Part shown: positions 3,560-20,470 of the stretch, in pieces | Position numbering within the stretch: position 1 is the first letter of the stretch | Layout: the number at the start of each line of letters is the position of its first letter | Source of the DNA: Candidatus Thorarchaeota archaeon | GTDB lineage: Archaea > Asgardarchaeota > Thorarchaeia > Thorarchaeales > Thorarchaeaceae | Direction of reading: 5' to 3' | NCBI GenBank assembly: GCA_003345595.1 | Contig: PRDI01000076.1 | Span: 1 to 24,464, forward strand | Length of the DNA: 24,464 nt | The notes under the pieces: model-generated | Database searches by the model: none | The model's input: the letters and a program-made list of their open reading frames with translations, nothing else | What the model was told of the DNA's origin: nothing | Made by a program: the position numbers and the translations under genes

Positions 3560-5227
3560 TCACAGAAACTCAGCTGCCGGTCCTGAATGCACGTATTTCA
3601 TGCGCGTGAGCATCACAGGAAAGTACTTGGCCCCAATTATCCCCGAGTCCTTGTACCCACCAAGATGGGGCATATGGGGATCAAAGTAGAGATGGTCCTG
3701 ACCAACGGATACACCTGCGGCCTCAATCTCTTTTGCCCATCTCAAGCTGACCGACTGATCATCAGTGAAAACCGAGGAACGCAGTCCAAACCGTGAGGCG
3801 TTTGCCACTCGAAGTGCCTCATCAATGCTTCCGACAGGCAACACTGGCAGAGCAGGAGCAAAGACCTCTTCCTGCATGACTCTCATAGACGCCTCCACGT
3901 TGGTTAACACCGTGGGTTTATAGAACAGGCCTGCAGTGTCAGGTTCCGATAGGTAGTTGCATCTGAATCCGCCGGTCACCACCTTCGCACCCTTTGCCCG
4001 GGCATCCTCCATTTGATCTAGTAGTAGGTACATCGCTGTGAGACCCAGCGGTGGAAGACTGACATCGGGATCCGAGGGGCGGCCAAGTTGCAGCTTCTCG
4101 GCCTCTTCAACCACAAGTCGCACCAAGTCGTCGTGTAGAGTGTCTTGCACAAGGAGGCGTTTGACAGCCATGCAGGCTTGACCGCTTCCTAGGAATCTGC
4201 CCTTCACAATCATCTTCGCTGCGAAATCAAGATTGACATCACGACCCCAGACAAGACAGGCATCACTCCCAGCCAGTTCCGGTGCCATCTGGATTCTTCT
4301 TCTTGTGGCCTCGGACCATAGCTCTATACCGGTGTCACTGTCACCGTACCAGACGATGGCACCCACCCTACGGTCCGAAGTGAATCTGTCCATGAGAGTC
4401 TTCCCTCCTCCTGTGAGGACCTGAATCATGGCAGACGGTAGCCCCATCTCTTGGAACGTCTGTAGGAATGCTTGCCCCAAGAGGATTGTACTCAACGGGA
4501 CCTTGCTTGGTGGTTTTAGTATGGTCGCGTTTCCAGCCAGTATCGATGACGTTATGCTGAGTATCCCCAAGGCAAGCGGAGAGTTGTAGGGGGTGAACAG
4601 ACAGGTAACACCGTAGGGCTCACGAAACTGGAAGTTCTTTCCGCCATCCCTGCCGGGTGCCTCCTTCAAATCCAAGTCCCGGCCCCACAGCTCGAAGGTT
4701 TCTCGTTCGAGGTATTCCGTAAACATCGTCCATGTCCATTCGAAGGTCTTTATGGGAACGCCCTCTTTGACTGATACGTCCCGCACTTCTTGGAACCGCT
4801 TCTTTATGGCGAGCCCTGCCTGGTAGAGTGCCTCCACGCGTTCATCGAGCGTGACACCGGTACTCAACAGCTTGAACGGGTTGTAGAGTTTCGGCCTGTC
4901 TCGCACCCCGGCAGAGAGTGCCCCCTCAATGTCTGGTTCACGTGAGATGGCGACTTCTGCATAAGTGGACTCATCAAGCTCATCTTTCGAATACCTGGGA
5001 ACACCATGGGCCCTCCGGTAGTCTCTCAGGTATCGCATCTCCGGAGCACTGCGCGGTATGAAACTCGGCAGTCTGGAGAAAACCAATCGCTGCATCGCTG
5101 ATGTATCCCTCATCTGGAGAGCTATTGCGATGCCCGGGTCAACGACGACCTTGTCCATATCAGGAAATGTCGCGTGCTTCCCAGTGTCCACTTCCTTGCC
5201 ATCAACGATTATCGGATAGATTCGCAT
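3560..5227 (-). CDS. Aldehyde dehydrogenase family protein (atypical)
   Basis: It contains REPYGV, TPYNSP (oxyanion Asn), LAGNATILKPP, ELAGSD (catalytic Glu), GQACMA (catalytic Cys), EEVFAP, ANASRFGL and GGYKDSG. Confidence 0.9.
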   Translation of the reverse strand: MRIYPIIVDGKEVDTGKHATFPDMDKVVVDPGIAIALQMRDTSAMQRLVFSRLPSFIPRSAPEMRYLRDYRRAHGVPRYSKDELDESTYAEVAISREPDIEGALSAGVRDRPKLYNPFKLLSTGVTLDERVEALYQAGLAIKKRFQEVRDVSVKEGVPIKTFEWTWTMFTEYLERETFELWGRDLDLKEAPGRDGGKNFQFREPYGVTCLFTPYNSPLALGILSITSSILAGNATILKPPSKVPLSTILLGQAFLQTFQEMGLPSAMIQVLTGGGKTLMDRFTSDRRVGAIVWYGDSDTGIELWSEATRRRIQMAPELAGSDACLVWGRDVNLDFAAKMIVKGRFLGSGQACMAVKRLLVQDTLHDDLVRLVVEEAEKLQLGRPSDPDVSLPPLGLTAMYLLLDQMEDARAKGAKVVTGGFRCNYLSEPDTAGLFYKPTVLTNVEASMRVMQEEVFAPALPVLPVGSIDEALRVANASRFGLRSSVFTDDQSVSLRWAKEIEAAGVSVGQDHLYFDPHMPHLGGYKDSGIIGAKYFPVMLTRMKYVHSGPAAEFL

Positions 5228-5275: not shown

Positions 5276-5821
5276 TTATAGTCTTTCTGAAGACATAATC
5301 TGTCTACGGATTTCTTGATTGTCTTCAGGTTCTTGCGCCACAGGACGTTCATACATCTGAACAAGCATCCCGGGCTGTTGCTCGTATGGATCACCCCACG
5401 GACGAAATCCGAATTTGTGCATAAGACGCATGCCCACGTCTTGACCAACAAGTATGTTGCAGTAGTTTCTGGAACAACCATGGCTACGAGCATACTCAAT
5501 GAAGTGAATGTACATGGCTGAAGCAAGCCCACTCGCTCTGCATGAAGGACTCACCGTCTGGTGTTCGCCGAAGAAGCCCTTCTCCGTGATCTTGGCCTTG
5601 TAGACCCCCACGATTCTGCCTTTGAGTCTGCTACCGAAGTAGTGGTAGCTGGCCCGCATCTCTTCGACAATCTGCTTTGAGGAATATGACCTCTTCTCCC
5701 TCCAGGACTCTGGGTACTCTGTGGCAAGCGGCCACACTTCCATGAAGAGTCTGGAGATGTCTCTCGCGTCCTCCTCTCCGAACTCTACTATCCGGATCTG
5801 CTCCGCCGGTATGAACGCCAT
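5276..5821 (-). CDS. GNAT family N-acetyltransferase
   Basis: It has motif A (VSPSCRASGLASAM), GRIVG and motif B (MHKFGF). The start is reassigned to ATG 5821 (MAFIP), which follows AGGAG and avoids an overlap with the radical SAM gene. Confidence 0.8.
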   Translation of the reverse strand: MAFIPAEQIRIVEFGEEDARDISRLFMEVWPLATEYPESWREKRSYSSKQIVEEMRASYHYFGSRLKGRIVGVYKAKITEKGFFGEHQTVSPSCRASGLASAMYIHFIEYARSHGCSRNYCNILVGQDVGMRLMHKFGFRPWGDPYEQQPGMLVQMYERPVAQEPEDNQEIRRQIMSSERL

Positions 5822-5853
5822 AGGGACTCTCCTACAGCAGGTGAAGGCCTGTT

Positions 5854-5859
5854 CATAAA
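5854..5859 (-). promoter_or_regulatory. Possible archaeal TATA box for the GNAT gene
   Basis: TTTATG on the minus strand about 33 nt upstream of ATG 5821. Confidence 0.3.
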
Positions 5860-5933
5860 CCTCTGCCTGCGTGATACCAATGCGGAACGCAACGGAATCC
5901 TGTATGGGAACGCCCATCGGCATCAGAGCAATA

Positions 5934-7058
5934 CTAGTGTCTCTTCTGGGCCCAGTCGAATGCTTCCTGAATGGGCGTGCAGCCACCACACCTGTGGCAA
6001 CCAGCCGCAGTCTTCTTGGGATTGAGGTGATGCCTTTGTAGAATCTCACCCACTCTCATGTAGAACGCCATCGTTTCCTCAAGATTGCCGACGTAATCAG
6101 GCGTGAAGTCTGCGAGCTGACTCCCCGGCGCAGGCCGGACGGGAGTGACTACCGGCATGACACCCATCTCGGACGTTTCCCGGACCAGTCCGAGTGTCGT
6201 TTCGATATCTTCACCCAGCCCATGCAGTATGAAAGTGCTCACATTGCCTCTCGCAAATTGACTGAGTGCACACTCCCAGCTCTTACGATACAGCTCAGGA
6301 GACCCTTGCTTGAACTTCCCTGGGCATATCTTTTCCCTAATCGACTCATCAGCGGATTCTATGTGGATGCCCACTGCCTTGGCACCAGCATCGGCAAGTC
6401 TCAGAATCAGGGTTTCATCGACAGAGGGCTCGAACTGCACGCCGACAGGAATCGTGCTCAACTCGTGTATGCGTTTCACGATTCCAATGAGGCGCTCACA
6501 ACCCATGTCGGATCCTGAAGGAGTCCCGGTCGTGAGTAGCACACTCGTGATCACACCTTCTCTCTCTGCGGCATCCACTACCTCGGCAATTTGATCGGGT
6601 GTCTTTTCAAGCACCGTGTCGCCAGCCGAGTGAGAGAGCGGTATGGTGCAGAACTTGCATTGTTCACCCTTGTTCCAGTATCTGCAAGACTGATAGACTG
6701 TTGTCGCCAGAGTGCCGTTCCCATGAAGCAGAGCCAGCTTCTGATACGGGATGCCATCGGCTGTGGACAGGTCGTAGAACTTGGGTCGCTGTACTGCTTT
6801 TAGATGAGCCGCTCCATCGTGAAGCCAGATTGCGGGGTTCTTGGTTGGGACAAGGGGCCTCGACCCAAATCTCTCTGCAAATCGTCCCTGACGAACGGGT
6901 ATCCCACAGGGACAACCATTCGGCAACGTGAAGTATCTGCTACCAACTGGCCCAGCGCCACCTCTTCTGCCGGTTGACTCACCCTCAGGGAGGATGACAC
7001 CTTCAGTTAAGAGGCGCACTTTCAACCTGAGCAGGTCTTCCGCGTTCATAGGAATCAC
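5934..7058 (-). CDS. Radical SAM protein, MSMEG_0568 (Nit1C NitD)/biotin-synthase-related type
   Basis: It has LATTVYQSCRYWNKGEQCKFCTI (CX8CX2C), EKTPDQIAEV, LTTGT, GIHIES and GLGE, plus C-terminal AGCHRCGGC. These are features I recall for the MSMEG_0568 family. The start is GTG 7058 or ATG 7049. Confidence 0.8.
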   Translation of the reverse strand: MIPMNAEDLLRLKVRLLTEGVILPEGESTGRRGGAGPVGSRYFTLPNGCPCGIPVRQGRFAERFGSRPLVPTKNPAIWLHDGAAHLKAVQRPKFYDLSTADGIPYQKLALLHGNGTLATTVYQSCRYWNKGEQCKFCTIPLSHSAGDTVLEKTPDQIAEVVDAAEREGVITSVLLTTGTPSGSDMGCERLIGIVKRIHELSTIPVGVQFEPSVDETLILRLADAGAKAVGIHIESADESIREKICPGKFKQGSPELYRKSWECALSQFARGNVSTFILHGLGEDIETTLGLVRETSEMGVMPVVTPVRPAPGSQLADFTPDYVGNLEETMAFYMRVGEILQRHHLNPKKTAAGCHRCGGCTPIQEAFDWAQKRH

Positions 7059-7089: not shown

Positions 7090-8211
7090 TCACATCTTGA
7101 CCTTTGGGTGCAAATGATATGATGCCATGACGATTTCGGGAAGGTCGAGGACTGTCAATCCTTCCGCATCTTGTGAGGCAAGCATGTTCTTACAGAAAGG
7201 ACACGAAGTGACCAAATATGCTGCACCGACATTTCGGGCTTGTTGTACACGGGCCTTCCCTATCACTCGGGCCTGCTCTTCGAAGAGCATTCTCATGCCA
7301 GCACCATTACCACAGCACATCGCGTTCTCCCTGTTTCGCTGCATCTCGACTACCTTGCCACCAGAGATCTTGTTGAGAACTCTCCTGGGAGGATCATAAA
7401 TCCCACAATGCCTTCCTAGGTGGCAAGGATCGTGAAATGTGACGAGACCCCCAAAGTCAGCTGTTTTGAGTTCGTCCAGATGCCGCTCAAGAAGCTGGCT
7501 GATGTGGATGACGGGCCTTGCGAGCTGAACACCATTCTCCGGATAGTCACGTGAGAGTGCTCTATAACAACCCGGACATGTGACTACTATCTCTTGGGCA
7601 TCCTGTTTGTTGAGCACATCAGCATTATGGCGGGCCTCTTCGAGCCCCTGATTTCTGAAGCCCGTCCTGAAAAGGGGCGAACCACAACACCATTCATCGT
7701 TCATGATACTTACTCCGTAGCCGAGCTTGGTCAGCAGAGAAGCAGTGCTCTGAGCTATGCCGTTCTCTCGATACGCGGCGGTGCAGCCGCTGAAGTATAC
7801 AATCTTCTTGCCCACATTCTTGGCTGGGGTGAACCACTTGCTCCTCTTGCTGTGCAGTTCTCCGAAGGGATTATGATTGGTCGCTATCATGGAAGAGATC
7901 TTGTCTAGACCTTGAGGATACCGCTGCTGTTCCACTAGCCTCGTTCTCGTGTCCTCTACTATTGCCGCAACGTCCACCTGAGGAAGACACCACACTAGGC
8001 ATTGTGAACACTCCAGACACTGGTACAGCACCTCGATAGCTCTCTCGTCCAGATTGCGAGTGCCATTCATTTCCTGATACACAAGCAGTGAGCGGCTATG
8101 AGGAGTAGGAGAATCAGACCGCCACGCCAGAAAGGTAGGACACATGTGACGACACATCTTGGGGCAGGCAGCACAAAGGCGGAGCTGCTCAGCAGTCTTT
8201 GCCTGATCCAT
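7090..8211 (-). CDS. Fe-S oxidoreductase with 2x[4Fe-4S] and two CCG domains (GlcF/GlpC/HdrD-like)
   Basis: It has CAACPKMCRHMCP and CLECSQCLVWC, followed by FSGC..CCG..TCPGC and HDPCH..CCG..SCPFC. Its start overlaps the upstream stop (TAATG). Confidence 0.9.
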   Translation of the reverse strand: MDQAKTAEQLRLCAACPKMCRHMCPTFLAWRSDSPTPHSRSLLVYQEMNGTRNLDERAIEVLYQCLECSQCLVWCLPQVDVAAIVEDTRTRLVEQQRYPQGLDKISSMIATNHNPFGELHSKRSKWFTPAKNVGKKIVYFSGCTAAYRENGIAQSTASLLTKLGYGVSIMNDEWCCGSPLFRTGFRNQGLEEARHNADVLNKQDAQEIVVTCPGCYRALSRDYPENGVQLARPVIHISQLLERHLDELKTADFGGLVTFHDPCHLGRHCGIYDPPRRVLNKISGGKVVEMQRNRENAMCCGNGAGMRMLFEEQARVIGKARVQQARNVGAAYLVTSCPFCKNMLASQDAEGLTVLDLPEIVMASYHLHPKVKM

Positions 8212-9638
8212 TAGCTTCGTCCTCCCATCCCAAGCTTGCCCGGGTTCATTATGCCATTCGGATCGAGCACCTCTTTGATTTGCCTAAGAACCTGAAAGCC
8301 CGATCCCCATTCTGCTTCTGTGTAGGTGCTCCTTGTAGTTCCAACACCATGCTGGTGACTCATTGTGCCGCCCATTCTGAGGCAGGCTGCCACACCATCA
8401 TCCCAGATCCCCTTGTAGGCGGACCATGCACTACTCGCATCTTCCTTGGAAACGAAGAAGATCATGTAGATGCTGCCTCCATTTGGATACATGTGAGAGA
8501 AGTGTGACATGACGACGGCGTCATGCGCCTCCATGGCTTTCTTCATCTCATGGTAGACATTCTCAAGCTTGTCGTAGGTCGCAACGATGTCGATGGTGTC
8601 GCCTACAGAATACCCCGAAGTGGCAAACTTCGTCGGGTAGTACATGTCGTATCTGTGTTCCCACCAGTACCTTGACGGACCCTCACCATAGTCTTTGGCC
8701 CCATTCTTCAGGCAGATTTCTGCTGCAATACTCTCCTCAACCGCAACTTTTTCAGCTCGACCGTCGAACGCGAGCATGAGCATGCAGCTTCCCTCCTCCA
8801 CGTCGAAGTGCGAACTAACGTGCAAGGCGGTGTCTTCAGGGTCATACAGCCGCACTACTGACGGAAGTACGCCTTCGCGAAAGATGAGTCTGATGGCCTC
8901 GAGGCCGCTGTGGACGTCAGGAAAGGACATGCTTCTGAAGCGTCTCTCCTTTGGCAACGGAAAAAGGCGCAAGGTGGCCTCAGTGATCACGCACAGTGTT
9001 CCCTCAGAACCTATGAACAGCTGCTTCAGGTCTGGGCCAACCGAGTGTCGAGGTACAGCCTTGCACCGTATGACAGATCCATCTGCCAAGACGACCTCTA
9101 GCCCCAAGGTAAGGTCTTCGATCTTGCCATAGAGAGATGACATGGAGCCCCCAGATCGCGTTGCAATAAAGCCACCCACATTCGACGCTCTTAGCGACGT
9201 CGGCGTATGCCCGGTCGTGTACCCCTGTCTGTTCACTTCCTCCTCGAGGTCTATTCCCACGACTCCCGCCTGCACTTGTACGAGCATGGACTGATTGTCA
9301 ATCAGGATGACCTTGTCCATCCGTTTGAGGTCGAGCTGGATACCACCATAGACGGGAAGAGTGCCCCCACAGGTCCCTGCACCGCCTCCGACTGGGACAA
9401 CAGGCACCCTGAGCTCATTGGCTAGCTTGAGAACTTTAGAAACCTCTTCCGTGGACGCAGGAAACACAATCAGGTCAGCCAGCGGCAGAGACTCTCCGGC
9501 CCTGATCTTTGCTTCGCTCAGTGGGTTTGCATCATGAGCGTTCAGGATGGCATCTGTTTCATTCACGGTAACATGGTCAGAACCAACAACAGTCCTGATA
9601 CGCTCTAGAAGAACACTCTTCGTCTTTGAGTCTAACAT
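8211..9638 (-). CDS. FAD-linked oxidoreductase of the VAO/PCMH family, alkylglycerone-phosphate synthase (AGPS)-like
   Basis: It has PVGGGAGTCGG, GHTPTS..SNVGGFIATRSGG..S..YGKIEDL, GPDLKQLFIGSEGTLCVITEA, VVRLYD, HFSHMYPNGGSIY, GGTMSHQHGVG and LDPNGIMNPGK. The start is set at ATG 9638, 8 nt after GAGGTGA. Confidence 0.85.
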   Translation of the reverse strand: MLDSKTKSVLLERIRTVVGSDHVTVNETDAILNAHDANPLSEAKIRAGESLPLADLIVFPASTEEVSKVLKLANELRVPVVPVGGGAGTCGGTLPVYGGIQLDLKRMDKVILIDNQSMLVQVQAGVVGIDLEEEVNRQGYTTGHTPTSLRASNVGGFIATRSGGSMSSLYGKIEDLTLGLEVVLADGSVIRCKAVPRHSVGPDLKQLFIGSEGTLCVITEATLRLFPLPKERRFRSMSFPDVHSGLEAIRLIFREGVLPSVVRLYDPEDTALHVSSHFDVEEGSCMLMLAFDGRAEKVAVEESIAAEICLKNGAKDYGEGPSRYWWEHRYDMYYPTKFATSGYSVGDTIDIVATYDKLENVYHEMKKAMEAHDAVVMSHFSHMYPNGGSIYMIFFVSKEDASSAWSAYKGIWDDGVAACLRMGGTMSHQHGVGTTRSTYTEAEWGSGFQVLRQIKEVLDPNGIMNPGKLGMGGRS

Positions 9639-9646
9639 GCATGGGT

Positions 9647-10888
9647 TCACCTCTCTTGTGGAAGCCTTTGAGCAATGAACACGGCCAGGTCATCCACCTG
9701 AATGTCGCTACCAGTGTTGAACAGATTGCGCTCAATTTGCGCCGTACAGAGAGGACAAGGGGCCACGAGCCGGTTTGCCTTGGTCGCTGATATCGGACCG
9801 AGGTTGTATGCGACAACCGCATCTGCTACATCTCTTGAGTGGTATCCGACCATTCCTCCACCTCCGCAACATGAATCTGCCACTCCAGAGGGGACAACAG
9901 TCACATTCGGAATCAGGTTCAGGACTGCGATGACATGGTCCGAGATCTGGCGCGAAGTATGGCGTATCAAATGGCACGGATCGTGAATCGTTGTCAAGAC
10001 TTCACCAGCCCGACTACCCTCAGTGAACGCTTCAGAGAGCCGTTCAAGCCCAATCTCCTCGGCCAGGAACTCAATCAAATGATACACTGGTACTCCCCAG
10101 TTGTCTCGGACGCTCATGTCAGACAGGTTCGAGGTGCATCCAGCACAGGTCGTGACAATCTTCTTGACACCGAGCAGATTCACCTTCTCTCTCAGGCGCG
10201 CGGCAAGCGACCTTGAGGTTTCGTCATCACCTATAAGTCTGGAAGGAAGACCGCAGCAGCTCATCTCTTCGAGCAGAGTGAAGTCAACTCCAAAGTAGTT
10301 CAGAATGAACTTGGCAGCCTCCTTGACTTCTTGAGCACGCTCTTCCGCTTGGCAGCCGGGGTAGAACAGGACCTCAGCTCCTTTTACAGTACGATCTTTG
10401 ATGAAGGGTAAGCCCGCTGCCTGAAGCCTTGCGTCGCGGCTCTCAGTCTTCTCATTCGGGTCTTCCCATGGTTCGAACGCAAGAGAGTACTTGGCAATGG
10501 TTTCACGAACAGCCCGAAGTCCTCTTGGCACAAGATCTGGCCTCTGCTTGAAAATCCGCGCGCGAACCATATTGACAATGTCAGGCATATTCACATTGAA
10601 GGGGCACACCTCGCGGCAAGTGCCGCAACTAGTACAGAGATAGACCTTATCTGCCGTGGACCAAAAGTCAGGCGGAGAACGGCTTAGCTCGACTGCAATG
10701 CTACGTGGACCACTGAACCTGTCAACGCCCACTGCCCTGACCACAGGACAGTGATTGAGGCACAAGCCACAGTTCACACATTTCTCCGCCGAACGTACGA
10801 CCTCAAGCTCATCAGTCTTGAATGGGATAATCCGCTCCTGCTCAAGAGTCGCACTCACTGTTCTGTATGCTTCTTCTTCGCTCATCAT
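9647..10888 (-). CDS. glpC: Anaerobic glycerol-3-phosphate dehydrogenase subunit C-like Fe-S/CCG protein
   Basis: It has CVNCGLCLNHCP and CTSCGTCREVCP plus two CCG domains. It lies directly after glpB with an ATGA overlap. Confidence 0.8.
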   Translation of the reverse strand: MMSEEEAYRTVSATLEQERIIPFKTDELEVVRSAEKCVNCGLCLNHCPVVRAVGVDRFSGPRSIAVELSRSPPDFWSTADKVYLCTSCGTCREVCPFNVNMPDIVNMVRARIFKQRPDLVPRGLRAVRETIAKYSLAFEPWEDPNEKTESRDARLQAAGLPFIKDRTVKGAEVLFYPGCQAEERAQEVKEAAKFILNYFGVDFTLLEEMSCCGLPSRLIGDDETSRSLAARLREKVNLLGVKKIVTTCAGCTSNLSDMSVRDNWGVPVYHLIEFLAEEIGLERLSEAFTEGSRAGEVLTTIHDPCHLIRHTSRQISDHVIAVLNLIPNVTVVPSGVADSCCGGGGMVGYHSRDVADAVVAYNLGPISATKANRLVAPCPLCTAQIERNLFNTGSDIQVDDLAVFIAQRLPQER

Positions 10889-12252
10889 TGCACCCCCTTT
10901 ACGTAGGCGGCGGCGTTCGCTCCAGCCGCGAAGCCTGTGGCAAGTGCCACTCCTAGTCCACTCTTCTCGACTGCGTAGTTGTAGCCCGCCAGAACAGACC
11001 CGGCAGCAAACAGATTCTGGGCAATCGGGCTGCCGTCGGCAGCCACGGGGTGAAAACTGGAGTCAAATGCAAGGCCAACCCCAAAAAGCGGATGGCCTTC
11101 TGGACTCAGTGGTATCACACCCGTAAGACGCTGCGGCCTGGAATCACCTGTTGGAATCAAATCACTGTCCACAATGGGCAGACCCATGAGCGACTCGCGA
11201 ACACCCCTCTCATCACCAACCAGTCCTCCTGCAAGAAACTTCCCAGATGCGAGGACCACTGCAGTTGACCTTATCTCTATCGTCCGTCTGGGCGCTCTTG
11301 CGGCGATAACCTGAACCAAGTCGCCGGCCTGACGAACTTCTGTGGCTTCATGGCCTGCTAGCAATCTGCCATCAGCCTTTCTGAAAACGGCTTCAAGGCT
11401 GGTCTGCAGCCTCAACCCCGGTACGGAAGGTGGAAATGCCGTTAGCTCAAAAACGGTGGCACCGGTCATCTCCTCAAGCTGTCTACGATTCTCTCTTGCA
11501 CGCTCCACCCCCAAGATGGGTGGTACTGCGACATAGTCTGCCCCTGTCTTGAGGACTTGACCCCCAATGGAATTTGCTAGTGCCGACAAGCCAGCATCAT
11601 GGTCAACAAACTGTGCTATCTCAATCTGGGATAGGTTGAACGGTTTGCCAGACGAGGAAACATCGAGAATGCAGCTGACTGCCTTCCTCGGTCCCTCTTC
11701 TCCGTAAGGTCTGTTGGCCATGAATGCTTTGACTGCCGATGAAGGATTGAAGTCTGGCAGCCCCCGAAGACCTGCGAAGAGGATGACACTATCATGACTC
11801 GGCGGGGTGTCGTTCCACATGGTTTCCTGGATGAGACACGTAGGCTTGGACGTCCCAAGGAGGCTGACTGCCTGGATGTTCTCCTCAAGATCACCCTTCA
11901 GGGCTCCACACGAACCACTCGACTTGTCTTTGAGCCATTGTACAGAGCTGTGCACACGGGACACAACCCGGCCGGGGTCGGAAGGAACACCTTCCTGCGA
12001 ACGACCAAGAGCGGAATACGGATGGAATGGACACATTGCACTGAGAGCATGTAGACCCTCGACAGGGTTCATGAGATACGCGGTGGCCCCGGGCACATAC
12101 CCGATGATGTCAATCGCACCTGATGATTGCGCCGTAGCTCCATGACCCTTTCTCAGCAAGACAACATCTAAACCAGCCTCGGCAGCGACCGAACCTGCAA
12201 CAAGACCTGCCATACCACCTCCGATGACAACCAAGTCAGTTTCGATGTCCAT
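10885..12252 (-). CDS. glpB: Anaerobic glycerol-3-phosphate dehydrogenase subunit B
   Basis: It has VIGGGMAG, SSGAID, FELTAFPPSVPGLRLQ, LASGKFLAGGL, NLFAAGSVLAGY and SGLGVALATG. The ATG abuts the glpA stop. Confidence 0.92.
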   Translation of the reverse strand: MDIETDLVVIGGGMAGLVAGSVAAEAGLDVVLLRKGHGATAQSSGAIDIIGYVPGATAYLMNPVEGLHALSAMCPFHPYSALGRSQEGVPSDPGRVVSRVHSSVQWLKDKSSGSCGALKGDLEENIQAVSLLGTSKPTCLIQETMWNDTPPSHDSVILFAGLRGLPDFNPSSAVKAFMANRPYGEEGPRKAVSCILDVSSSGKPFNLSQIEIAQFVDHDAGLSALANSIGGQVLKTGADYVAVPPILGVERARENRRQLEEMTGATVFELTAFPPSVPGLRLQTSLEAVFRKADGRLLAGHEATEVRQAGDLVQVIAARAPRRTIEIRSTAVVLASGKFLAGGLVGDERGVRESLMGLPIVDSDLIPTGDSRPQRLTGVIPLSPEGHPLFGVGLAFDSSFHPVAADGSPIAQNLFAAGSVLAGYNYAVEKSGLGVALATGFAAGANAAAYVKGVQ

Positions 12253-13911
12253 CTATGCCGCCTCCTCCCACGGCTTCAGTTCATAGGGTAGGTCAGTATG
12301 GTCTAGATTGGCCACACAAGCATAGAGCCCTTGTGTCAATTCCTCTTGGCCAAGCTGTCCTCCTCTCATGGGTGGGCGCTTGCCCTTCCAACGCTCTGCC
12401 AAGAAGTCAATCATCTCAAGCTGATATTGCTCACCGCTTAAGTCAAGTTCCTCAGCCAATACGGCAGCAGCCTTGAAGGTGCAGAATGTTCCTTGGCACG
12501 GACCTGTGCCAAGCCTTACCCGGCGTCTAAGGTCGCCGATGGTCTGCGGAAACTCATTCCGGATAGCATATCTCAATTCGGCTTCAATGACCGGTTCGCA
12601 CGTGCAGATAGTGGACTTCCATTCGGGATGTTCCTTCGTGAGAGCCAAGACCGCAGAAGTTTCGGTGCCTCTCCTAGCTCTGAGCCTCTCGACAGCGTGC
12701 TGCGACAAGCCGTATTCAGCTGCAAGCGCCAGTACATCGACATCAGCCCCATTTCCGGGCAATGAATCAAGATGCGTTCTACAGACGGTTTCCCTTCCAA
12801 GCTTCTTCGACACAAGATTGGTTACTGCCTCCGCCATGTGCCTGCACATCACGAGCTTGCCCCCTGTGAAGCTGATCAGACCATCTACTCCGTCCTTCTC
12901 ATGGTCTATGATTCGGTATCCCCTAGTCACCTTGTCTTCAGACCTCTTCCATTCTGGAACGAGAGGTCTTACACCTTCCATTGTCCGGATTATCCTCGCC
13001 TGCCGGATAGAAGGCACGACCCATTCCATGCTCTTCAGTAGATACTCAATTTCGTCATGACTCGCGACAATCACATCTGGGTCTTCCCAAGTGTCGAGAG
13101 CGGTTGTACCCAAGAGTGTCGTGTTCTCATGTGGATAGAGGTAGATCCAACGACCGTCAGCTGCTTTTGATGAAATCCCAACGTTAACGATTCTTCGGTC
13201 CAGGATGACATGGGCGCCCTTGTTCAAACGGAGATCCAGTGGAGCTCCAGCCATTGCAGCAACCTTTCCGGCCCACGGACCGCCAGCATTCACAATCAGT
13301 TTCCCGTCGGCGCACTCAACCTGTCTGGTGGCTCTGTTATAGAAAGTCACACGCTTGGCAGGTTTGGTAGCTTCTATGCCTGTTACTTCGCAGTAGGTCT
13401 TGATTGTGGCGCCATGTTGCTTGGCGTCAATGGCCTGAAGCAAGCAGAGACGGAAGGGGTCGATGAAGTACTCCTCGTAGTACAAGCAGGCTGCCATGTC
13501 AGGATTCAGTGATGGTTCGATACTGAGTGACTGCTCCGGAGAGAGAAACATGACCGGAGGAACACCTCGCTCTTTCGCACGCTTCGCGTATTCATCTGTG
13601 AAACTGCTGGCTTCTCCTCCACGAGTCAACTCCTCTAGCTCAGAGAACGGCATCAGAATCGGATCCTTCATGATTATGTGGCGGGCAATCCTGCGGAAGT
13701 AGACGACCTCCTGTGAACACATGTCCATTATGTCGGGCTCATCGTAGTACTTGAAGCCCGAAGAGATCATACCTGCGCAAGTGCCCACCGTGGCTGACGC
13801 AATGTCATCTCTCTCCAGAAGGAGCGTCTTCAGCCCACGTAGGGCACAGTCCCGAGCCACGGCAGTACCGGTGCTGCCGCCACCAATCACAATGACATCA
13901 TAGTCGGTCAT
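12253..13911 (-). CDS. glpA: Anaerobic glycerol-3-phosphate dehydrogenase subunit A-like flavoprotein with C-terminal BFD-like [2Fe-2S] domain
   Basis: It has DVIVIGGGSTG..ARDCALRGL, IDPFRL, VNAGGPWA, KGAH, GTT, GVRPL, GGKL..CRHMAE and ICTCE..RLGTGPCQGTFC. The start is reassigned to ATG 13911 (MTDYDV). Confidence 0.88.
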   Translation of the reverse strand: MTDYDVIVIGGGSTGTAVARDCALRGLKTLLLERDDIASATVGTCAGMISSGFKYYDEPDIMDMCSQEVVYFRRIARHIIMKDPILMPFSELEELTRGGEASSFTDEYAKRAKERGVPPVMFLSPEQSLSIEPSLNPDMAACLYYEEYFIDPFRLCLLQAIDAKQHGATIKTYCEVTGIEATKPAKRVTFYNRATRQVECADGKLIVNAGGPWAGKVAAMAGAPLDLRLNKGAHVILDRRIVNVGISSKAADGRWIYLYPHENTTLLGTTALDTWEDPDVIVASHDEIEYLLKSMEWVVPSIRQARIIRTMEGVRPLVPEWKRSEDKVTRGYRIIDHEKDGVDGLISFTGGKLVMCRHMAEAVTNLVSKKLGRETVCRTHLDSLPGNGADVDVLALAAEYGLSQHAVERLRARRGTETSAVLALTKEHPEWKSTICTCEPVIEAELRYAIRNEFPQTIGDLRRRVRLGTGPCQGTFCTFKAAAVLAEELDLSGEQYQLEMIDFLAERWKGKRPPMRGGQLGQEELTQGLYACVANLDHTDLPYELKPWEEAA

Positions 13912-14173
13912 CGAATGTCCAGCTTGCCGATGCGTGGAGCGCTCGGAGATCCGCGGGCGCCCCTCTCGCAGTGCGGCGTATGTAGTGGATATCAAGTCGT
14001 CAATACAAGGGTTTCGGAACGGAGTAGGCTGTTGCCATGAGAGTTGAGAGTCTGGCATCTAGAGTATGGAACGACAACGAAGTTGGCCGCATGCGCTAGA
14101 TAGGTTAAAAGGTTCCTAACCACGAGATGAACTATCAAGCATGAATGACGCCGGCGCCGCCGGAGTGATTGTG

Positions 14174-14470
14174 ATGCCGACATACAATCTTGGTACTCTG
14201 GTCATCGGAAAGCACGATGTCCAGAAGCTGACCGACGCTCTCGAAATCCCCGAACATCGGTTTGAGGACCTTATCGATCTATCACGCAAGGCGTATGAGT
14301 TTGGCGACACGATTAGCCAGTCAATAGAGTACGTGGCTCAGCGAGTCACAGGTTCGGAACTAGTCCTCACGCTTGTGTTCTTCGGTCGCCTGTGGGAAGA
14401 GAGAAAGAAACAGGAAGAAGAGAAGAAGACGACCAAGGAGCATGGAATTCGGCCCTGGACCAAGGACTGA
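14174..14470 (+). CDS. Small hypothetical protein
   Basis: The ORF fills the gap between glpA and the kinase. GGAGTGA precedes ATG 14174. The composition is protein-like and helical with a charged tail. Confidence 0.65.
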   Translation: MPTYNLGTLVIGKHDVQKLTDALEIPEHRFEDLIDLSRKAYEFGDTISQSIEYVAQRVTGSELVLTLVFFGRLWEERKKQEEEKKTTKEHGIRPWTKD

Positions 14471-14566
14471 TTAGGTTTTGTCATTCACAGAAACGTGAGC
14501 AGAGGGCGGTGTAGCCTCCACTTGTAGGATAGGCCACGCATGCTGAAGCCCAGAATCCCGCCTATG

Positions 14567-16024
14567 TTAGCTCGTGAGTTCAAGCAGTGTCGGCATCTCT
14601 GCCATCAGCAGCTTGTTGAATGTCGCGAACTGCTTTTCGTAGATTGCCACGTGTTCTGGTATCGGCTGCCTCCGCTCTTCAACCTGAAACATGTTGTCCA
14701 CGGCCTCACTGTACGTGCTGTACACTCCCGTGCCAACGGCTGCGAGTACGGCCGCTCCTATTGCCGTCGAGTCACGAGACCTAGGCAGCGCAACTGTCTT
14801 GTTTACGCAGTCTGCTTGAATCTGCCTCCATAGTGGGGAGTTCGCACCACCTCCGTCTATCCGAAGCTCACTGAACTTGAGATCGAGCATGCTTTCCATC
14901 ATGTCCACGTACAGTTTGATGCCGTATCCGTTGGCCTCCATTATCGCCCTAGCCACATGAGCCTTGGTATGACTGAAGCTCAAATCATAGAATATGCCCT
15001 TCCCGTACGCCATAAAAGGAAAGATGACTAGGCCATCGCTCCCGGCAGGGACAGAGCTCGCGGATGCCTCAATTACCTCATAGACACTCTTGTTTGTTTC
15101 AGCAGCAATGACAGCTTCGCGCTCACAGTACTGGTCGCGATACCACTTGTAAGCCAGACCTGTTCCAGGTATGACGCCCTCCAGAATCCATTTGCCGGGG
15201 ATAGCAGACGGGTTGCTGAACATGACGTACGGATCATCAATGTGCTCGTCTGTGTGTGTGATGACGAATGTGCCGGTTCCCGTAGTGGCCTTCACTATGC
15301 CAGTCTGAATGGTGCCGGTACCAAGCGCCGAACACTGCTGGTCGCCACTGCCCATAATCACAATCGTGCCCTTTCTCAGCCCTGTGGCCTTAGCAGCCTC
15401 GGGCGAGACTTCACCGATCACGGTCCCCGGGTCTACTATGTCCGCAAGCTTGTCGACAGGAATTCCTGTGGCTTGGCACATCTCATCAGACCACTTCAGA
15501 GTTGCATGATCGATGGGCCCATACCTGGCATTGGCGGGCTCTGTGAACATCTTGCCACAGAGCCGATTGTTGATCAAAGCATCCAAGGTGATGAACTTGT
15601 AAGCCTTCTGGAATAGGTCCGGTTTGTTCTCAATGAACCACATCAGCTTGTTGACTGATTTCCTGGGCCCGATCTGAGAGGCCATTTCCTTGCTCTTTGT
15701 TCCAGATCGATTGTCAACCCACGTCACAGTGGGGGCGAGAGGAAGTCCCTTCCTGTCAACAGGTGTGATACAATCCCGCGTGGTTGCCAGAACACAGGCT
15801 ACCACCGAATTCGCACCCTTAGGGTAGCTGGACAGAGCTCTCTGCATAGTGTTCACCGCAGTCCTCCAGAATGTTTCCGCTAATTGCTCGTGTGTCTTTA
15901 GCTCACGCGGCACTGGAGGATACTCTTCGTATGCCTTACTCACCTCACGACCTTCCTCATCGACAAGGCAAGAACGCGCTCCCGTGGTACCGACATCGAA
16001 GACTGCAAAGATACGCTGGCTCAT
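14567..16024 (-). CDS. FGGY family carbohydrate kinase (glycerol kinase/xylulokinase-like)
   Basis: It has FDVGTTGAR, TTRD, TWVDNR, GSGDQQ, TTGTGTF, RAIMEA, DGGGANS.LWRQIQAD and TAIGAA. ATG 16024 follows an AGGTGA SD. Confidence 0.92.
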   Translation of the reverse strand: MSQRIFAVFDVGTTGARSCLVDEEGREVSKAYEEYPPVPRELKTHEQLAETFWRTAVNTMQRALSSYPKGANSVVACVLATTRDCITPVDRKGLPLAPTVTWVDNRSGTKSKEMASQIGPRKSVNKLMWFIENKPDLFQKAYKFITLDALINNRLCGKMFTEPANARYGPIDHATLKWSDEMCQATGIPVDKLADIVDPGTVIGEVSPEAAKATGLRKGTIVIMGSGDQQCSALGTGTIQTGIVKATTGTGTFVITHTDEHIDDPYVMFSNPSAIPGKWILEGVIPGTGLAYKWYRDQYCEREAVIAAETNKSVYEVIEASASSVPAGSDGLVIFPFMAYGKGIFYDLSFSHTKAHVARAIMEANGYGIKLYVDMMESMLDLKFSELRIDGGGANSPLWRQIQADCVNKTVALPRSRDSTAIGAAVLAAVGTGVYSTYSEAVDNMFQVEERRQPIPEHVAIYEKQFATFNKLLMAEMPTLLELTS

Positions 16025-16115
16025 GATACTCACCTATCGAACAGAGGGGAAGTATGATAGCAAGCCGGAATATGAATCATCCGACGGAGAGAGTTATGAG
16101 ATGGACTGAACATGC

Positions 16116-17063
16116 ATGGGACTGGCCCAAATGCCAGAATACCCAATCCACGCAGAAATCATGCCTCATGTTCACATGATACGAGGAGCAAACAAGTCAA
16201 GGTTCCCGGAGGCGAACGCGCTTCTGATTGACGACGAAGTGATGACCCTCGTCGACGCCGGGCCAAACATGAACCATATTCTGAAGACTCTCTCCGACCT
16301 CGGGCATTCCGTAAGAGACCTTGACCGAATAATACTCACGCACTTCCACATAGATCACAAGGGGCATGCCGCACAGCTTCAGAAGGCCTCAGGATGTGAA
16401 ATAATATGTCATCCCCTTGCAGAGAAAGGCATCAGCACATTCCAAGGGATGGTCGAGTGCTATGGAATAGAGGGCAACCGACGCTTCTCAGGCTGGATGT
16501 CCACTATCACAACTTGGGTACCTCATATTACCTCAGACTGCCCGGTTTCCAGCCACTTCATAGATGGCAAGCCGATAGACTGCGGAGAAACACGGCTCCT
16601 TCCTCTTCATACCCCGGGACATACATCTGATCACACTTGTTTCGGCATAAATGACTACAACACCATACTGCTGGTGGACATTGATCTCACGTCGTTTGGA
16701 CCCTGGTATGGAAATGTGGTCAGCGATCTAGACCAGTTCGAATCATCCATCAAGAAGGTCATGAACCTATCGCCGAAGATGGGCATAAGCGGCCACTTGC
16801 TGGAGCCTGTTACAGAGGAGCTACAAGGACGGCTTGCTGAGTTTCTAGCCGTCTTTGACGAGCGTGACAGACGCATACTCGAACTTGTGGACCGAGGCCA
16901 TGATACGCTTGAGAAGCTCACGAGCCTGCCAACGATTTACCCTCGCATACCGAACGATCTCTTCTACATCTTCGAGGAATTCATGCTAAAGAAGCACATC
17001 GACAGACTTACTGAACGCGGATTGCTCACTGAAACAGATGGCTACTTGAAGGTGAAAAGATAG
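16116..17063 (+). CDS. Metallo-beta-lactamase-fold hydrolase with probable C-terminal winged helix
   Basis: It has LVDAG, THFHIDHKGH (HxHxDH), HTPGHT, the Asp in VDIDL and ISGH. The C-terminus (KKHIDRLTERGLL) is wHTH-like. The start may be 16131. Confidence 0.88.
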   Translation: MGLAQMPEYPIHAEIMPHVHMIRGANKSRFPEANALLIDDEVMTLVDAGPNMNHILKTLSDLGHSVRDLDRIILTHFHIDHKGHAAQLQKASGCEIICHPLAEKGISTFQGMVECYGIEGNRRFSGWMSTITTWVPHITSDCPVSSHFIDGKPIDCGETRLLPLHTPGHTSDHTCFGINDYNTILLVDIDLTSFGPWYGNVVSDLDQFESSIKKVMNLSPKMGISGHLLEPVTEELQGRLAEFLAVFDERDRRILELVDRGHDTLEKLTSLPTIYPRIPNDLFYIFEEFMLKKHIDRLTERGLLTETDGYLKVKR

Positions 17064-17084
17064 CGGCGAGGTATAGCCTCGCCG
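17064..17084. terminator. Hairpin between convergent genes (possible bidirectional terminator)
   Basis: CGGCGAGG-TATAG-CCTCGCCG is a perfect 8-bp stem immediately after the MBL gene stop. Confidence 0.6.
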
Positions 17085-17093
17085 GTCATTGTT

Positions 17094-17879
17094 CTACTTG
17101 TGAGAAAAGCTCGGCGTTCTCTTAGAGAGAAAGGCATCAACACCTTCTTCCTTGTCTTTCGTGTCGAAAGTCTGGCAGAACGCATCAACTTCGAACTTGA
17201 GACTCTTTTCCAGCGGCAGCTCCCAGGATTTGTTCAATGACTGCTTGGCCAGCTTTATTGCAACACCAGGTTTAGTCGCTAGTGTCTTTGCCAGCTTCAT
17301 CGTTCCCTCGCGGAGAGCCAAGACGCTCTCAAACACCTTGTTGACAAGACCTAGTCTGAACGCTTCGTCCGCCGCGATCTGTTCGCCTGTGTACACAAGC
17401 TCCTTGGCAATCCCAAGGCCTACGAGCCGCGGAAGGCGCGCAGTCCCACCAAAGCCGGGCATGATCCCCAAGTTAATCTCGGGCTGACCGAACCTGGCGT
17501 TGGACGAGGCATACCGGATGTCACAAGCCATAGCAATTTCGCAACCGCCGCCCAAGGCAAACCCATTGATGGCAGCGATGACAGGCTTGCTCATTGACTC
17601 TATGTACCTACAAAGCTCTTGACCATTCTCCGTCAGCGGTCTCACCGCTGAAGAGTTCTTGTTCGTGAACTCACTTATGTCAGCCCCGGCGGCAAATGCC
17701 TTTTCCTCAGCGCCCGTCAGGACGACGACTCTGACAGAACGGTCTTCTTCTGCTCGTCTGAACAGCTCTCTGAGCGTCTTCACGACAGTGGAGTTCAGAG
17801 CGTTGTATTTCTTGGGACGGTTTAGCGTTATTGTCGCGACCCCTTCAGCGGCTTGATAGAGCACATCTTGTTCGGACAT
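17094..17879 (-). CDS. Enoyl-CoA hydratase (crotonase)
   Basis: It has LNRP..YNAL, AFAAGADI, KPVIAAINGFALGGGCEIAMACD and QPEINLGIMPGFGGT, with both catalytic Glu. ATG 17879 follows GAGGAG. Confidence 0.95.
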   Translation of the reverse strand: MSEQDVLYQAAEGVATITLNRPKKYNALNSTVVKTLRELFRRAEEDRSVRVVVLTGAEEKAFAAGADISEFTNKNSSAVRPLTENGQELCRYIESMSKPVIAAINGFALGGGCEIAMACDIRYASSNARFGQPEINLGIMPGFGGTARLPRLVGLGIAKELVYTGEQIAADEAFRLGLVNKVFESVLALREGTMKLAKTLATKPGVAIKLAKQSLNKSWELPLEKSLKFEVDAFCQTFDTKDKEEGVDAFLSKRTPSFSHK

Positions 17880-18103
17880 CTTTAGTCTCCTCGCTAGGAT
17901 GAGGAAACCTCTGGTGGTGAATAATAAGCATTCGCTCATCGTGGCGTGTGATTAGGGTAGGCAGTTTTCGAAGAAGTGACAAGGAGCGCGTAGTCTTGTT
18001 AGAGCATCACGCCGATGCAGTAGAGCATATTCGGACTGGCTCTAGATTTATCTGCATGTCGTGCCTCATGTCGAGTGTCCGCACAAGCGCCTAGTGAAAG
18101 GAC

Positions 18104-18451
18104 TTGGAGGCATCTCCGACGGTTCAAGTCTGGAAGGAATCGCTTCTGGCCATGAGGAACTCCCTACAGAGCAGTTATGAGATGGAGAGATCTGTTGAAG
18201 AACGGATTCGGCATTCCAGACCAGCTGTCCTCTACGATGCTCGGCAAGTCCCGTGTATTGACTGCCAGCACAATGAAGGACTCAAGCGCATCAAGCAGAT
18301 TATCGACCTCATTGACAGCGCTGTGAAGCAGTTGGACCAATGCGACTCCGCAGGTGCATCGAACATATACCTCCGAACCCTCGAGGCAGTAGCCCTCATC
18401 TCAAGACATGCCAAGGTTGCTGAGAAGTCGTTTCCAGAGCTGAAGCCCTAG
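18104..18451 (+). CDS. Small helical hypothetical protein with central CxxC
   Basis: 115-aa ORF in an otherwise empty interval. Amphipathic helices flank PCIDCQH. The TTG start follows AAGGA. Confidence 0.5.
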   Translation: MEASPTVQVWKESLLAMRNSLQSSYEMERSVEERIRHSRPAVLYDARQVPCIDCQHNEGLKRIKQIIDLIDSAVKQLDQCDSAGASNIYLRTLEAVALISRHAKVAEKSFPELKP

Positions 18452-18512
18452 ATGGGGCAAAAGGGCTGGTCGCAGGGGTCTATGAACTACTGACAACGGA
18501 CGGTAAAACGCT

Positions 18513-18552
18513 GAAAAAGTAGGAGACAGGGTCACCGCCAACGGGGACCCTG
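18513..18552 (-). terminator. Hairpin + T-tract terminator after the thiolase-DUF35 operon
   Basis: Stem CAGGGTC.CCG / CGG.GACCCTG at 18527-18552, followed on the minus strand by TCTCCTACTTTTTC. Confidence 0.6.
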
Positions 18553-18572
18553 ACCTCAGCTAGACTCTGTAT

Positions 18573-18989
18573 CTATACTTGCCACTTGTAGGTGACTTGT
18601 TTGTCCGATACACGCTCGAAGCTAAGCTTGAGCTTCATGCCGACTTTGGGCATGTCCATCAGATTGGTGATGTGCGCTGTGAGTCTGCGGCCCGATGGAA
18701 ACTCTCCAATCGCGACTACGTAGGGTTGCCGAGAAGCGAGGCTCTCTGGCGCGAACTCCACAACGGTGAACGAAACCAGCTTTGCATCGCGCTCGGTGAA
18801 CTCCGTTAGCTCACATTCCGTCAGGCACTTCTGACAGTACTGTCGGGGTGGAAGGTACTCGCTCTTGCACTTCTTGCAGGTGCTCTTCATGAGCTGCTGC
18901 TTCTCAAGTGCCTCAAGGAACTGCTTGAAGAATGGAGTGACAGCCTTGTCTGTTGTGTAGCCTAGGTAGATCTCTTTCTCGCCTGACAT
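18573..18989 (-). CDS. DUF35 Zn-ribbon + OB-fold protein (thiolase partner)
   Basis: It has CKKC..YLPPRQYCQKC, SFTVV and PYVVAIGEF. It starts 2 bp after the thiolase stop. Confidence 0.92.
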   Translation of the reverse strand: MSGEKEIYLGYTTDKAVTPFFKQFLEALEKQQLMKSTCKKCKSEYLPPRQYCQKCLTECELTEFTERDAKLVSFTVVEFAPESLASRQPYVVAIGEFPSGRRLTAHITNLMDMPKVGMKLKLSFERVSDKQVTYKWQV

Positions 18990-18991
18990 GA

Positions 18992-20415: not shown

Positions 20416-20456
20416 AAAGAAAAGAAAGTGCGACCCCGTTCAATTTGCCGGGGTCG
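20416..20456 (-). terminator. Hairpin + T-tract terminator after the second crotonase
   Basis: CGACCCCG (20431-20438) pairs with CGGGGTCG (20449-20456), followed on the minus strand by CACTTTCTTTTCTTT. Confidence 0.65.
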
Positions 20457-20470
20457 TAATCATGTTGAGT

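Follow-up and report, generated by a model that had tools for sequence, protein, structure and literature searches.

The locus considered here raises the question of why, in an archaeon, a relative of alkyldihydroxyacetonephosphate synthase (AGPS, or ADPS) should be coupled to the genes of an FGGY-family kinase and of a GlpABC-type glycerol-3-phosphate (G3P) dehydrogenase. It lies in a stretch of 24,464 nucleotides from a Candidatus Thorarchaeota archaeon (contig PRDI01000076.1 of assembly GCA_003345595.1), analysed at its full length and called the window below. This contig belongs to a 2.7-Mb metagenome-assembled genome that is 83% complete and whose close relatives carry the labels Candidatus Thorarchaeota or Promethearchaeota. 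The six genes in question encode the kinase, GlpA-, GlpB- and GlpC-like subunits, the AGPS-like flavoprotein and a further iron-sulfur (Fe-S) protein with CCG domains, termed CCG2. A preliminary description of the window had proposed that they form an oxygen-independent route for cleaving 1-O-alkylglycerols or, run in reverse, a eukaryote-type route of ether-lipid synthesis. The comparisons reported here suggest a different answer, namely that the module is catabolic and carries out a flavin/Fe-S redox step on a small glycerol-like phosphate, the compound taken up by the pathway not being plain glycerol; a rough probability of 55% appears appropriate for this reading.

A conserved module in Asgard archaea and bacteria

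All six genes lie on the minus strand, at the coordinates that the preliminary description had assigned to them. The kinase, a remodelled glycerol-kinase-like paralogue (14567-16024; Pfam FGGY_N and FGGY_C), is followed by a GlpA-like subunit of the flavin adenine dinucleotide (FAD)/[2Fe-2S] dehydrogenase type with an altered substrate loop (12253-14058; DAO, DAO_C and Fer2_BFD), a GlpB-like flavoprotein subunit (10885-12252; FAD_binding_2, and 204.6 bits with TIGR03378, which passes its cut-off of 174.15) and a GlpC-like Fe-S subunit with two 4Fe-4S motifs and two CCG domains (9647-10888; CCG twice and Fer4_8). The last two genes encode the AGPS-like flavoprotein of the VAO family, with 475 amino acids (8211-9638; FAD_binding_4 and FAD-oxidase_C), and CCG2, a dedicated Fe-S partner resembling GlpC, GlcF and HdrD (7090-8211; CCG twice). 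The tight coupling that had been claimed for the five genes from glpA onwards was found exactly as described when the junctions were read from the sequence: the TAG of glpA is followed by the ATG of glpB with a gap of 0 bp, glpB and glpC share an ATGA overlap, the TGA of glpC is separated by 8 nt from the in-frame ATG of the AGPS-like gene at 9638 (an alternative GTG at 9650 overlaps the stop), and the AGPS-like gene and CCG2 share a TAATG overlap.

About 50 Thorarchaeota loci of sufficient extent share the gene order kinase, GlpA, GlpB, GlpC, AGPS-like and CCG2, and a homologue at E <= 1e-60 was present in 40 of 81 sampled genomes of the same phylum. Synteny within Thorarchaeota says little by itself about function, because flanking genes with no relation to the module, RsmB among them, are conserved as well. 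In 16 loci from other Asgard families, with 35-51% identity, the AGPS-like gene and a CCG2 homologue lie less than 4 kb apart in 15 and abut directly in 13, and an FGGY kinase is found in the same stretch in 14. The contiguous six-gene block occurs in five of these loci, and a sixth (L162) carries a GlpA-GlpB-GlpC-AGPS-like run that is ended by the contig end. One other Asgard family carries an FngA/FngB-type dehydrogenase instead, and several have the FGGY kinase, AGPS-like protein and CCG protein without an adjacent GlpA (L151, L157-L159, L161). Genomes with this triad alone might be thought to use the AGPS-like/CCG pair as their sole G3P dehydrogenase. This possibility was rejected, since all five tested have other GlpA- or FngA-like genes, and the test therefore does not discriminate.

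The linkage extends to bacteria, where the preliminary description had already pointed to related clusters. In a Bacillota contig (relatives of Gelria sp. Kuro-4) genes for DeoR, FngA-like, FngB-like, DUF1667, AGPS-like, Fe-S and FGGY proteins stand in a row, and in Acidimicrobiia, Chloroflexota and Bacteroidota the AGPS-like gene lies beside canonical GlpD-type genes and an FGGY or DAGK_cat kinase. The neighbourhood comparison that had been recommended thus shows the combination of AGPS-like protein, CCG protein and FGGY kinase recurring in other Asgard families, in Bacillota and in other bacteria. This arrangement is far beyond chance; the genes are one conserved functional module, with a wider linkage than had been stated. 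A second recurring neighbour is a creatininase-family gene (PF02633), seen in two loci of unrelated bacterial or metagenomic origin; in L085 it comes immediately after the AGPS-like gene, whereas in L134 the CCG gene stands between the two.

The AGPS-like flavoprotein and its iron-sulfur partner

Both the sequence and the predicted fold of the flavoprotein place it nearer to AGPS than to GlcD or D-lactate dehydrogenase. A phmmer search against the PDB placed AGPS from Dictyostelium (2uuu, 224.7 bits) and guinea pig (4bby, 194.5 bits) first, followed by LctD (168.3 bits) and LDHD (156 bits). The AlphaFold model (pLDDT 93.9) gave the same ranking with Foldseek, AGPS being the top match at a template-modelling (TM) score of 0.90, followed by LDHD at 0.85. 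Two residues reported to be needed for AGPS catalysis (PMC3509576; PDB mutant entries 4bca and 4bc7) are kept, the Arg in VRLYD, which aligns with IRVYD/IRLMD (R352 in Dictyostelium, R419 in guinea pig), and the Tyr in SIYMIFF, which aligns with CLYFIF/CIYFYF (Y508 and Y578, respectively); both are invariant or nearly so among 62 members of the clade.

Other parts of the AGPS active site and architecture are changed. The HHH loop (His615-617 in guinea pig) reads HQH, with SHQHGVG for SHHHG, so that the first and third His are kept; His616 and His617 are treated as active-site residues in PMC13019191. The SHQH form was found in 120 of 120 homologues among the matches listed (70-96% identical, and from Thorarchaeota where named); most other members of the clade have HHH, and the clade consensus retains the Arg, the Tyr and SHHHG. 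A third Arg with a role in catalysis by Dictyostelium AGPS, R447 (PMC3509576), aligns with the Thr of YYPTKF, with a Lys at +1. The alignment begins only at about residue 128 of the Dictyostelium enzyme and residue 181 of the guinea-pig enzyme, the N-terminus being shorter by about 110 and 150-180 residues, respectively; the N-terminal gating-helix domain of AGPS is therefore absent, and a cap-domain segment of about 20 residues is missing as well. In AGPS a gate-keeping helix of this domain, which is unique to ADPS, controls the channel for the C16 substrate (PMC3509576).

The prokaryotic AGPS-like clade comprises 2,420 cluster representatives at E < 1e-30. The phylogeny that had been suggested was run as a FastTree analysis of 192 domains rooted on E. 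coli GlcD, in which true AGPS was represented by Myxococcota proxies and not by eukaryotic sequences. One clade (support 63) unites Thorarchaeota with six other Asgard families and nests with bacterial sequences bearing CCG partners (support 99). A separate AGPS-proximal clade (support 100) consists of longer proteins (552-668 amino acids) with an N-terminal extension and holds the Myxococcota protein L116 (322 bits to 2uuu) and GlpD-linked proteins of Chloroflexota and Bacteroidota; the Asgard clade falls outside it. As far as this proxy-based tree goes, the Thorarchaeota protein would be a relative of AGPS and not its orthologue. E. coli YgcU, which the preliminary description had named for inclusion, lies in another subclade, nearer to a second Asgard group (families f8 and f19). 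The bacterial loci L083 (9854-14061, Bacteroidota) and L078-L082 (Chloroflexota/Anaerolineae) encode AGPS-like proteins of 553-557 amino acids from the AGPS-proximal clade beside canonical GlpD-type genes, with the gene for a DAGK_cat lipid kinase also adjacent in L083, and they appear more promising than the Asgard proteins as candidate ether-lipid enzymes of bacteria.

The same data bear on whether the flavoprotein is an ordinary D-lactate or glycolate dehydrogenase of the GlcD/GlcF type that merely lies beside a normal glycerol operon. Its match to the GlcD model TIGR00387 (227.6 bits) and the resemblance of its partner to GlcF and LdhH would be in keeping with this. However, the cut-off of that model is 567.9 bits, and the protein falls below all GlcD cut-offs; it is 27% identical to E. 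coli GlcD, and a long branch separates the AGPS-like clade from the latter in the tree. GlcD and D-lactate dehydrogenases have a GEHG motif, in place of which the protein has SHQHG, and SGEH was seen in only 1 of the 150 representatives. Adjacency to a remodelled kinase and to GlpA is, moreover, kept across Asgard families and in Bacillota. An ordinary GlcD or D-lactate dehydrogenase was rejected on family scores, motifs and the tree, and the reading as a whole is very unlikely.

CCG2 carries two cluster motifs (one of them CX2CX3CX3C) and two CCG domains and, like GlpC, shows no transmembrane segment. The NCBIfam models that it matches best are those of TfrB, LdhH and GlpC, none of whose cut-offs it reaches. 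GlpC and CCG2 are paralogous, with TfrB, the thiol-oxidising subunit of a reductase, as the best family match. An electron-transfer partner is a near-constant companion of AGPS-like relatives, in the form of a separate or fused CCG protein, GlcE/F-like subunits or an electron-transfer flavoprotein (ETF). All four contexts examined in the nearest bacterial clade include a CCG partner, and E. coli ygcU is flanked by an ETF (ygcQR) and ygcNO. The reaction of AGPS is redox-neutral and needs no electron carrier (PMC3509576). The Fe-S partner therefore argues against a redox-neutral exchange or a hydrolysis, neither of which needs one, and the simplest reading of the pair is that the AGPS-like protein and CCG2 are the two subunits of a flavin/Fe-S enzyme of GlcDF-like build, a dehydrogenase or a reductase. 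Several variants of this architecture were noted among the relatives: P0156 is a natural fusion of an AGPS-like protein to Fer4 and CCG domains, P0121 and others (about 900-990 amino acids) are fused to a second FAD_binding_4 module, and in the Myxococcales loci L076 and L084 genes for AGPS-like, GlcE-like and GlcF-like proteins stand in a row, as in glcDEF, with a radical SAM/SPASM gene about 0.5 kb upstream.

If the pair were a reductase, it might serve as an electron sink. GlpABC has been proposed to be electron-bifurcating, with the CCG clusters of GlpC as the high-potential exit (PMC13689815), and the AGPS-like/CCG2 reductase would take the high-potential electron in an organism that has no quinone acceptor. 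The paralogy of GlpC and CCG2, their match to TfrB and the translational coupling of the genes are consistent with such an arrangement, which is nevertheless quite improbable, given that the AGPS-like, CCG and FGGY genes occur without GlpABC in several lineages, that no acceptor substrate is evident and that bifurcation by GlpABC is itself unproven.

Altered substrate motifs in the kinase and GlpA

The kinase falls below every NCBIfam cut-off (LsrK 227 of 528 bits, XylB 222 of 380, GlpK 163.6 of 590.35). The residues that we take to bind glycerol in the E. coli GlpK structures are Arg83, Glu84, Tyr135 and Asp245. Compared with E. coli GlpK, the kinase has TRDC for QRET and keeps GDQQ and GTGTF; Arg83 and the catalytic Asp245 (in GDQQ) are thus retained, Glu84 is replaced by Asp in TRDC, and the DPYFS loop with Tyr135 is deleted. 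The same change was seen in every GlpK-like FGGY kinase checked beside an AGPS-like gene, a set made up of the kinase of the window and those of five other Asgard families, Bacillota, Actinobacteria and Bacteroidota, together with two kinases of the bacterial locus L165: all have QRA[TS], QRS, QRG or TRDC for QRET, and none has a DPYFS loop. The AGPS-adjacent bacterial kinases of L132 and L165 score at or near the GlpK cut-off, yet the two L165 kinases, which do so against the equivalog cut-off, show the changed motif. The kinase of the E. coli ygc cluster, YgcE, reads IRCC at the QRET position, and two XylB-like neighbour kinases (that of L167 and the upstream kinase of L132) do not align at this motif.

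A separate kinase with NQRET and DPYFS is encoded elsewhere in five Asgard genomes from five families. In the genome studied here, a kinase with the canonical motifs (QRET, DPYFS) lies on contig C92 (L186, 8141-9655); it passes the XylB cut-off (390 versus 380 bits) and not that of GlpK. No glycerol genes were found beside it, its neighbours being a LarA-like gene and A/V-type ATP synthase genes. Orthology of the Thorarchaeota kinase with the bacterial AGPS-adjacent kinases was considered and rejected. Because the closest relative of the kinase is its own C92 paralogue (35% identity) and not one of these bacterial kinases, Glu84 seems, from the sequences compared, to have been lost in more than one FGGY lineage.

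The only GlpA-like gene of the genome is that of the module, and it is altered in a comparable place. When aligned to 3da1, 2rgh and E. coli GlpA, its loop GMISSGFKY replaces LLHSGARY of E. coli or IHGGLRY, with Ser for the conserved His and Lys for Arg. The motif GMIS[GAS]G.KY was found in the in-operon GlpA of 49 of 50 Thorarchaeota loci and of 6 other Asgard loci, and the GlpD-type neighbours of bacterial AGPS-like genes carry the canonical loop. In the sole Asgard locus in which GlpABC is divergent from the FGGY, AGPS-like and CCG2 genes (L153; G113:C284, about 14000-18300), GlpA has the canonical loop GMIHGGFRY. Compared with GlpABC of E. coli and haloarchaea and with FngABC (PMC13689815), the three subunits have the same order and domain content; the differences are a lower GlpA score (410 bits with TIGR03377 versus a cut-off of 552.8), the replacement of HSGARY by SSG[FL]KY and the extension of the operon by a second flavoprotein/CCG pair. 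For many FngA/GlpA homologues, polyol phosphates other than G3P have been put forward as the substrates (PMC13689815).

Departures of kinase, GlpA and AGPS-like protein from their canonical motifs had all been noted in the preliminary description, and each was borne out (TRDC and no DPYFS, the Ser/Lys loop, and HQH). Across Asgard families they vary together with the module, as the kinase change also does across bacterial phyla. This pattern fits a glycerol-like substrate other than plain glycerol.

The kinase data are also relevant to a parallel glycerol-phosphate system, in which the AGPS-like/CCG2 pair would be a flavin/Fe-S dehydrogenase, for instance for sn-glycerol-1-phosphate (G1P), the archaeal backbone enantiomer, acting alongside the altered GlpABC so that both feed dihydroxyacetone phosphate (DHAP). 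AGPS binds a DHAP moiety, several Asgard families have the FGGY, AGPS-like and CCG genes with no GlpA adjacent, and the adjacent bacterial kinases of L132 and L165 score at or near GlpK cut-offs. In addition, one bacterial context pairs a Ugp-like ABC transporter with an Fe-ADH_2 protein, a family that we take to include G1P dehydrogenase. Such a system seems unlikely, however, as the adjacent kinases have lost glycerol-binding residues and GlpA/FngA-like genes are present elsewhere in genomes with only the triad. In archaea the NAD-dependent EgsA already interconverts G1P and DHAP, and we know of no glycerol kinase that forms G1P.

Substrate class, related systems and implications

Gene contexts of the bacterial relatives point to soluble compounds. 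These relatives adjoin binding-protein ABC transporters of the LivK and CUT1 types, SSF and MFS transporters and a DeoR regulator, with SDR, Fe-ADH and 2-hydroxyacid dehydrogenase genes as further neighbours, and the E. coli ygc cluster includes two sugar-type transporters. AGPS-like proteins also occur naturally fused with a PfkB sugar kinase in P0213 and with a Cof-type HAD phosphatase in P0211. The context in favour of a lipid consists of the DAGK_cat kinase in Bacteroidota, which lies beside a protein of the AGPS-proximal clade, and of the beta-oxidation neighbours restricted to Thorarchaeota, and nothing else. A small polyol, which the preliminary description had itself offered as an alternative substrate, is better supported than the ether-lipid pathway, and the evidence favours a small phosphorylated compound over ether-lipid cleavage or synthesis.

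The flanking genes of the window were compared in the same way. The acyl-CoA cluster (17094-22941) encodes two crotonases, a thiolase with DUF35, a 3-hydroxyacyl-CoA dehydrogenase and SCP2, and is separated from the module by a divergent gene of the metallo-beta-lactamase fold; it exists as had been described, and it adjoins the module in Thorarchaeota loci only, not in other Asgard families. On the other side, a radical SAM gene of the MSMEG_0568 family (281 bits, just under the cut-off of 303.7) and a GNAT gene (5276-7058, minus strand) lie about 30-40 bp past CCG2 in essentially all Thorarchaeota loci and were not found beside the module in other Asgard families. They and the beta-oxidation genes were rejected as conserved members of the module, since they accompany it in Thorarchaeota loci only; the same distribution was seen for the downstream aldehyde dehydrogenase gene (3560-5227, minus strand). 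The Pfam match of the latter begins only at residue 125, and among NCBIfam models lactaldehyde dehydrogenase scores best, though far short of its cut-off; some Thorarchaeota loci have in its place a homologue with only about 37% identity on the opposite strand. Upstream, the kinase had been described as co-oriented with glpA. It is on the same strand, but the two are not contiguous, the 508-bp gap between them containing an opposite-strand open reading frame of 109 amino acids (14141-14470, plus strand). This small frame, recognised by tblastx/tblastn conservation, is kept in 29 Thorarchaeota loci at 55-94% identity, always antisense to the operon; it matches no Pfam family and is probably outside the module. 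In other Asgard families it was not found, and kinase and glpA are direct neighbours there.

With these neighbours in view, the originally proposed catabolism of glycerol monoethers can be assessed. In this oxygen-independent scheme a 1-O-alkylglycerol would be phosphorylated by the kinase and oxidised by the altered GlpABC to alkyl-DHAP, and the AGPS-like protein would cleave the ether through a flavin-N5 adduct, either hydrolytically or oxidatively with electrons passing to CCG2, the alcohol being released to the neighbouring beta-oxidation genes. Monoalkyl glycerol ethers are reportedly present in anoxic sediments. The AGPS Arg and Tyr persist together with two His of the HHH loop; a group on C1 of glycerol would fit both a kinase pocket enlarged by the loss of Glu84 and Tyr135 and the changed GlpA loop; the triad of kinase, G3P dehydrogenase and AGPS-like protein recurs with non-homologous kinases, including the DAGK_cat kinase of Bacteroidota, and aldehyde dehydrogenase, beta-oxidation and SCP2 genes lie nearby in Thorarchaeota. 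The scheme nonetheless appears unlikely. The gating domain and the cap-domain segment are missing, the protein lies outside the AGPS-proximal clade, and the nearly obligatory Fe-S partner is not accounted for by a hydrolytic route. The lipid genes are not kept with the module outside Thorarchaeota loci, and the relatives sit with soluble-solute transporters and sugar-type fusions. To our knowledge, no FGGY kinase acts on lipids.

For the reverse direction, a eukaryote-type synthesis in which acyl-DHAP and an alcohol would give alkyl-DHAP for subsequent reduction, the best sequence and fold match is indeed AGPS, and homologues carry the JGI label alkyldihydroxyacetonephosphate synthase. No acyltransferase of PF01553 (PlsC/GNPAT type) was found in the genome, which, at 83% completeness, makes it a case of not found rather than absent; PF07993 gave only weak, generic matches in the same incomplete genome, so that no clear fatty-acyl reductase was found either. 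The N-terminal domain is missing, the loop reads HQH, the protein is outside the AGPS-proximal clade, and the kinase and Fe-S partner have no role in such a route. A 2025 preprint on the origins of plasmalogens saw no evidence of that pathway in Archaea (10.1101/2025.10.10.681575). Ether-lipid synthesis is accordingly extremely unlikely here.

The preferred reading, a catabolic redox step on a small glycerol-like phosphate, can be outlined as follows. The dedicated FGGY kinase would phosphorylate the substrate, and the altered GlpABC would oxidise its glycerol-phosphate-like part to a DHAP-like keto-phosphate. The AGPS-like protein and the translationally coupled CCG2 would then act as a two-subunit dehydrogenase, wired like GlcD/GlcF or the HdrD type, in which the site shared with AGPS (Arg, Tyr and His-x-His) may bind and deprotonate a keto- or hydroxy-phosphate and the FAD would hand two electrons to the Fe-S clusters, with no redox-neutral acyl/alkyl exchange of the AGPS type. 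The most likely candidates for the substrate are a C4-C5 polyol phosphate or glycerol with a small group on C1. Several points weigh against this outline. Both the redox role and the substrate class are inferred from gene context, and covalent N5 chemistry of the AGPS type, including exchange of a leaving group at C1, is possible because the catalytic Arg and Tyr are retained. The AGPS-like/CCG2 pair could equally be a reductase, the Bacteroidota AGPS-like gene has a lipid-type DAGK_cat kinase as neighbour (although its product belongs to the AGPS-proximal clade), and the presence of two dehydrogenase systems with paralogous CCG subunits in one operon is left unexplained.

Several known systems resemble the module in part. 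With AGPS (EC 2.5.1.26; 2uuu, 4bby) the flavoprotein shares the VAO-type FAD and cap domains, the Arg, the Tyr and the first and third loop His; it differs in having no gating domain, no cap segment of about 20 residues, HQH, Thr at R447 and an Fe-S partner, and no GNPAT-type or clear fatty-acyl reductase partner was found in the genome. The E. coli K-12 ygc cluster comprises the FGGY kinase gene ygcE, ygcU, the ETF genes ygcQR, ygcNO, the SDR gene ygcW and the transporter genes ygcS and yqcE. YgcU belongs to the same AGPS-like clade (32% identity, 241 bits) and is likewise linked to an FGGY kinase lacking the Glu and to a dedicated electron-transfer system; unlike the Thorarchaeota protein it has an ETF/FixCX-like partner instead of a CCG protein, and the ygc cluster contains no GlpABC. 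GlcDEF and CCG-partnered D-lactate dehydrogenases (with GlcF, LdhH or HdrD-like subunits) also combine a VAO flavoprotein with a subunit carrying two [4Fe-4S] motifs and two CCG domains, and Myxococcota AGPS-like relatives even keep a GlcE-like third subunit; low identity to E. coli GlcD, the long branch and a kinase/glycerol-phosphate context, not one of glycolate or lactate, set the module apart. In the erythritol catabolism of Brucella and Rhizobium, the FGGY kinase EryA and the GlpD-like dehydrogenase EryB convert a polyol to its phosphate and then to a keto-polyol phosphate, after which the pathway continues at the carbon adjacent to the ketone. The likeness is one of logic; we know of no AGPS-like or CCG protein in that pathway.

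Literature searches returned no functional study of a prokaryotic AGPS-like member except for the Myxococcus AGPS gene MXAN_1676, and none in searches for Rv2251, ygcU and AGPS in Asgard archaea. The JGI label of the homologues should not be taken as evidence of eukaryote-type ether-lipid synthesis in Asgard archaea. Linkage to a kinase, to an Fe-S or ETF partner and often to a G3P-dehydrogenase homologue points to a reaction next to glycerol-phosphate/DHAP metabolism. No oxygen-independent enzymatic cleavage of glycerol ethers is known to us, and ether cleavage by this module would, if true, be the first; such a route, common to Asgard archaea and several bacterial phyla, would account for oxygen-free recycling of ether lipids. 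Should the AGPS-like protein prove to be a dehydrogenase, it would reveal the relation between the covalent, redox-neutral chemistry of AGPS and ordinary flavin dehydrogenation.

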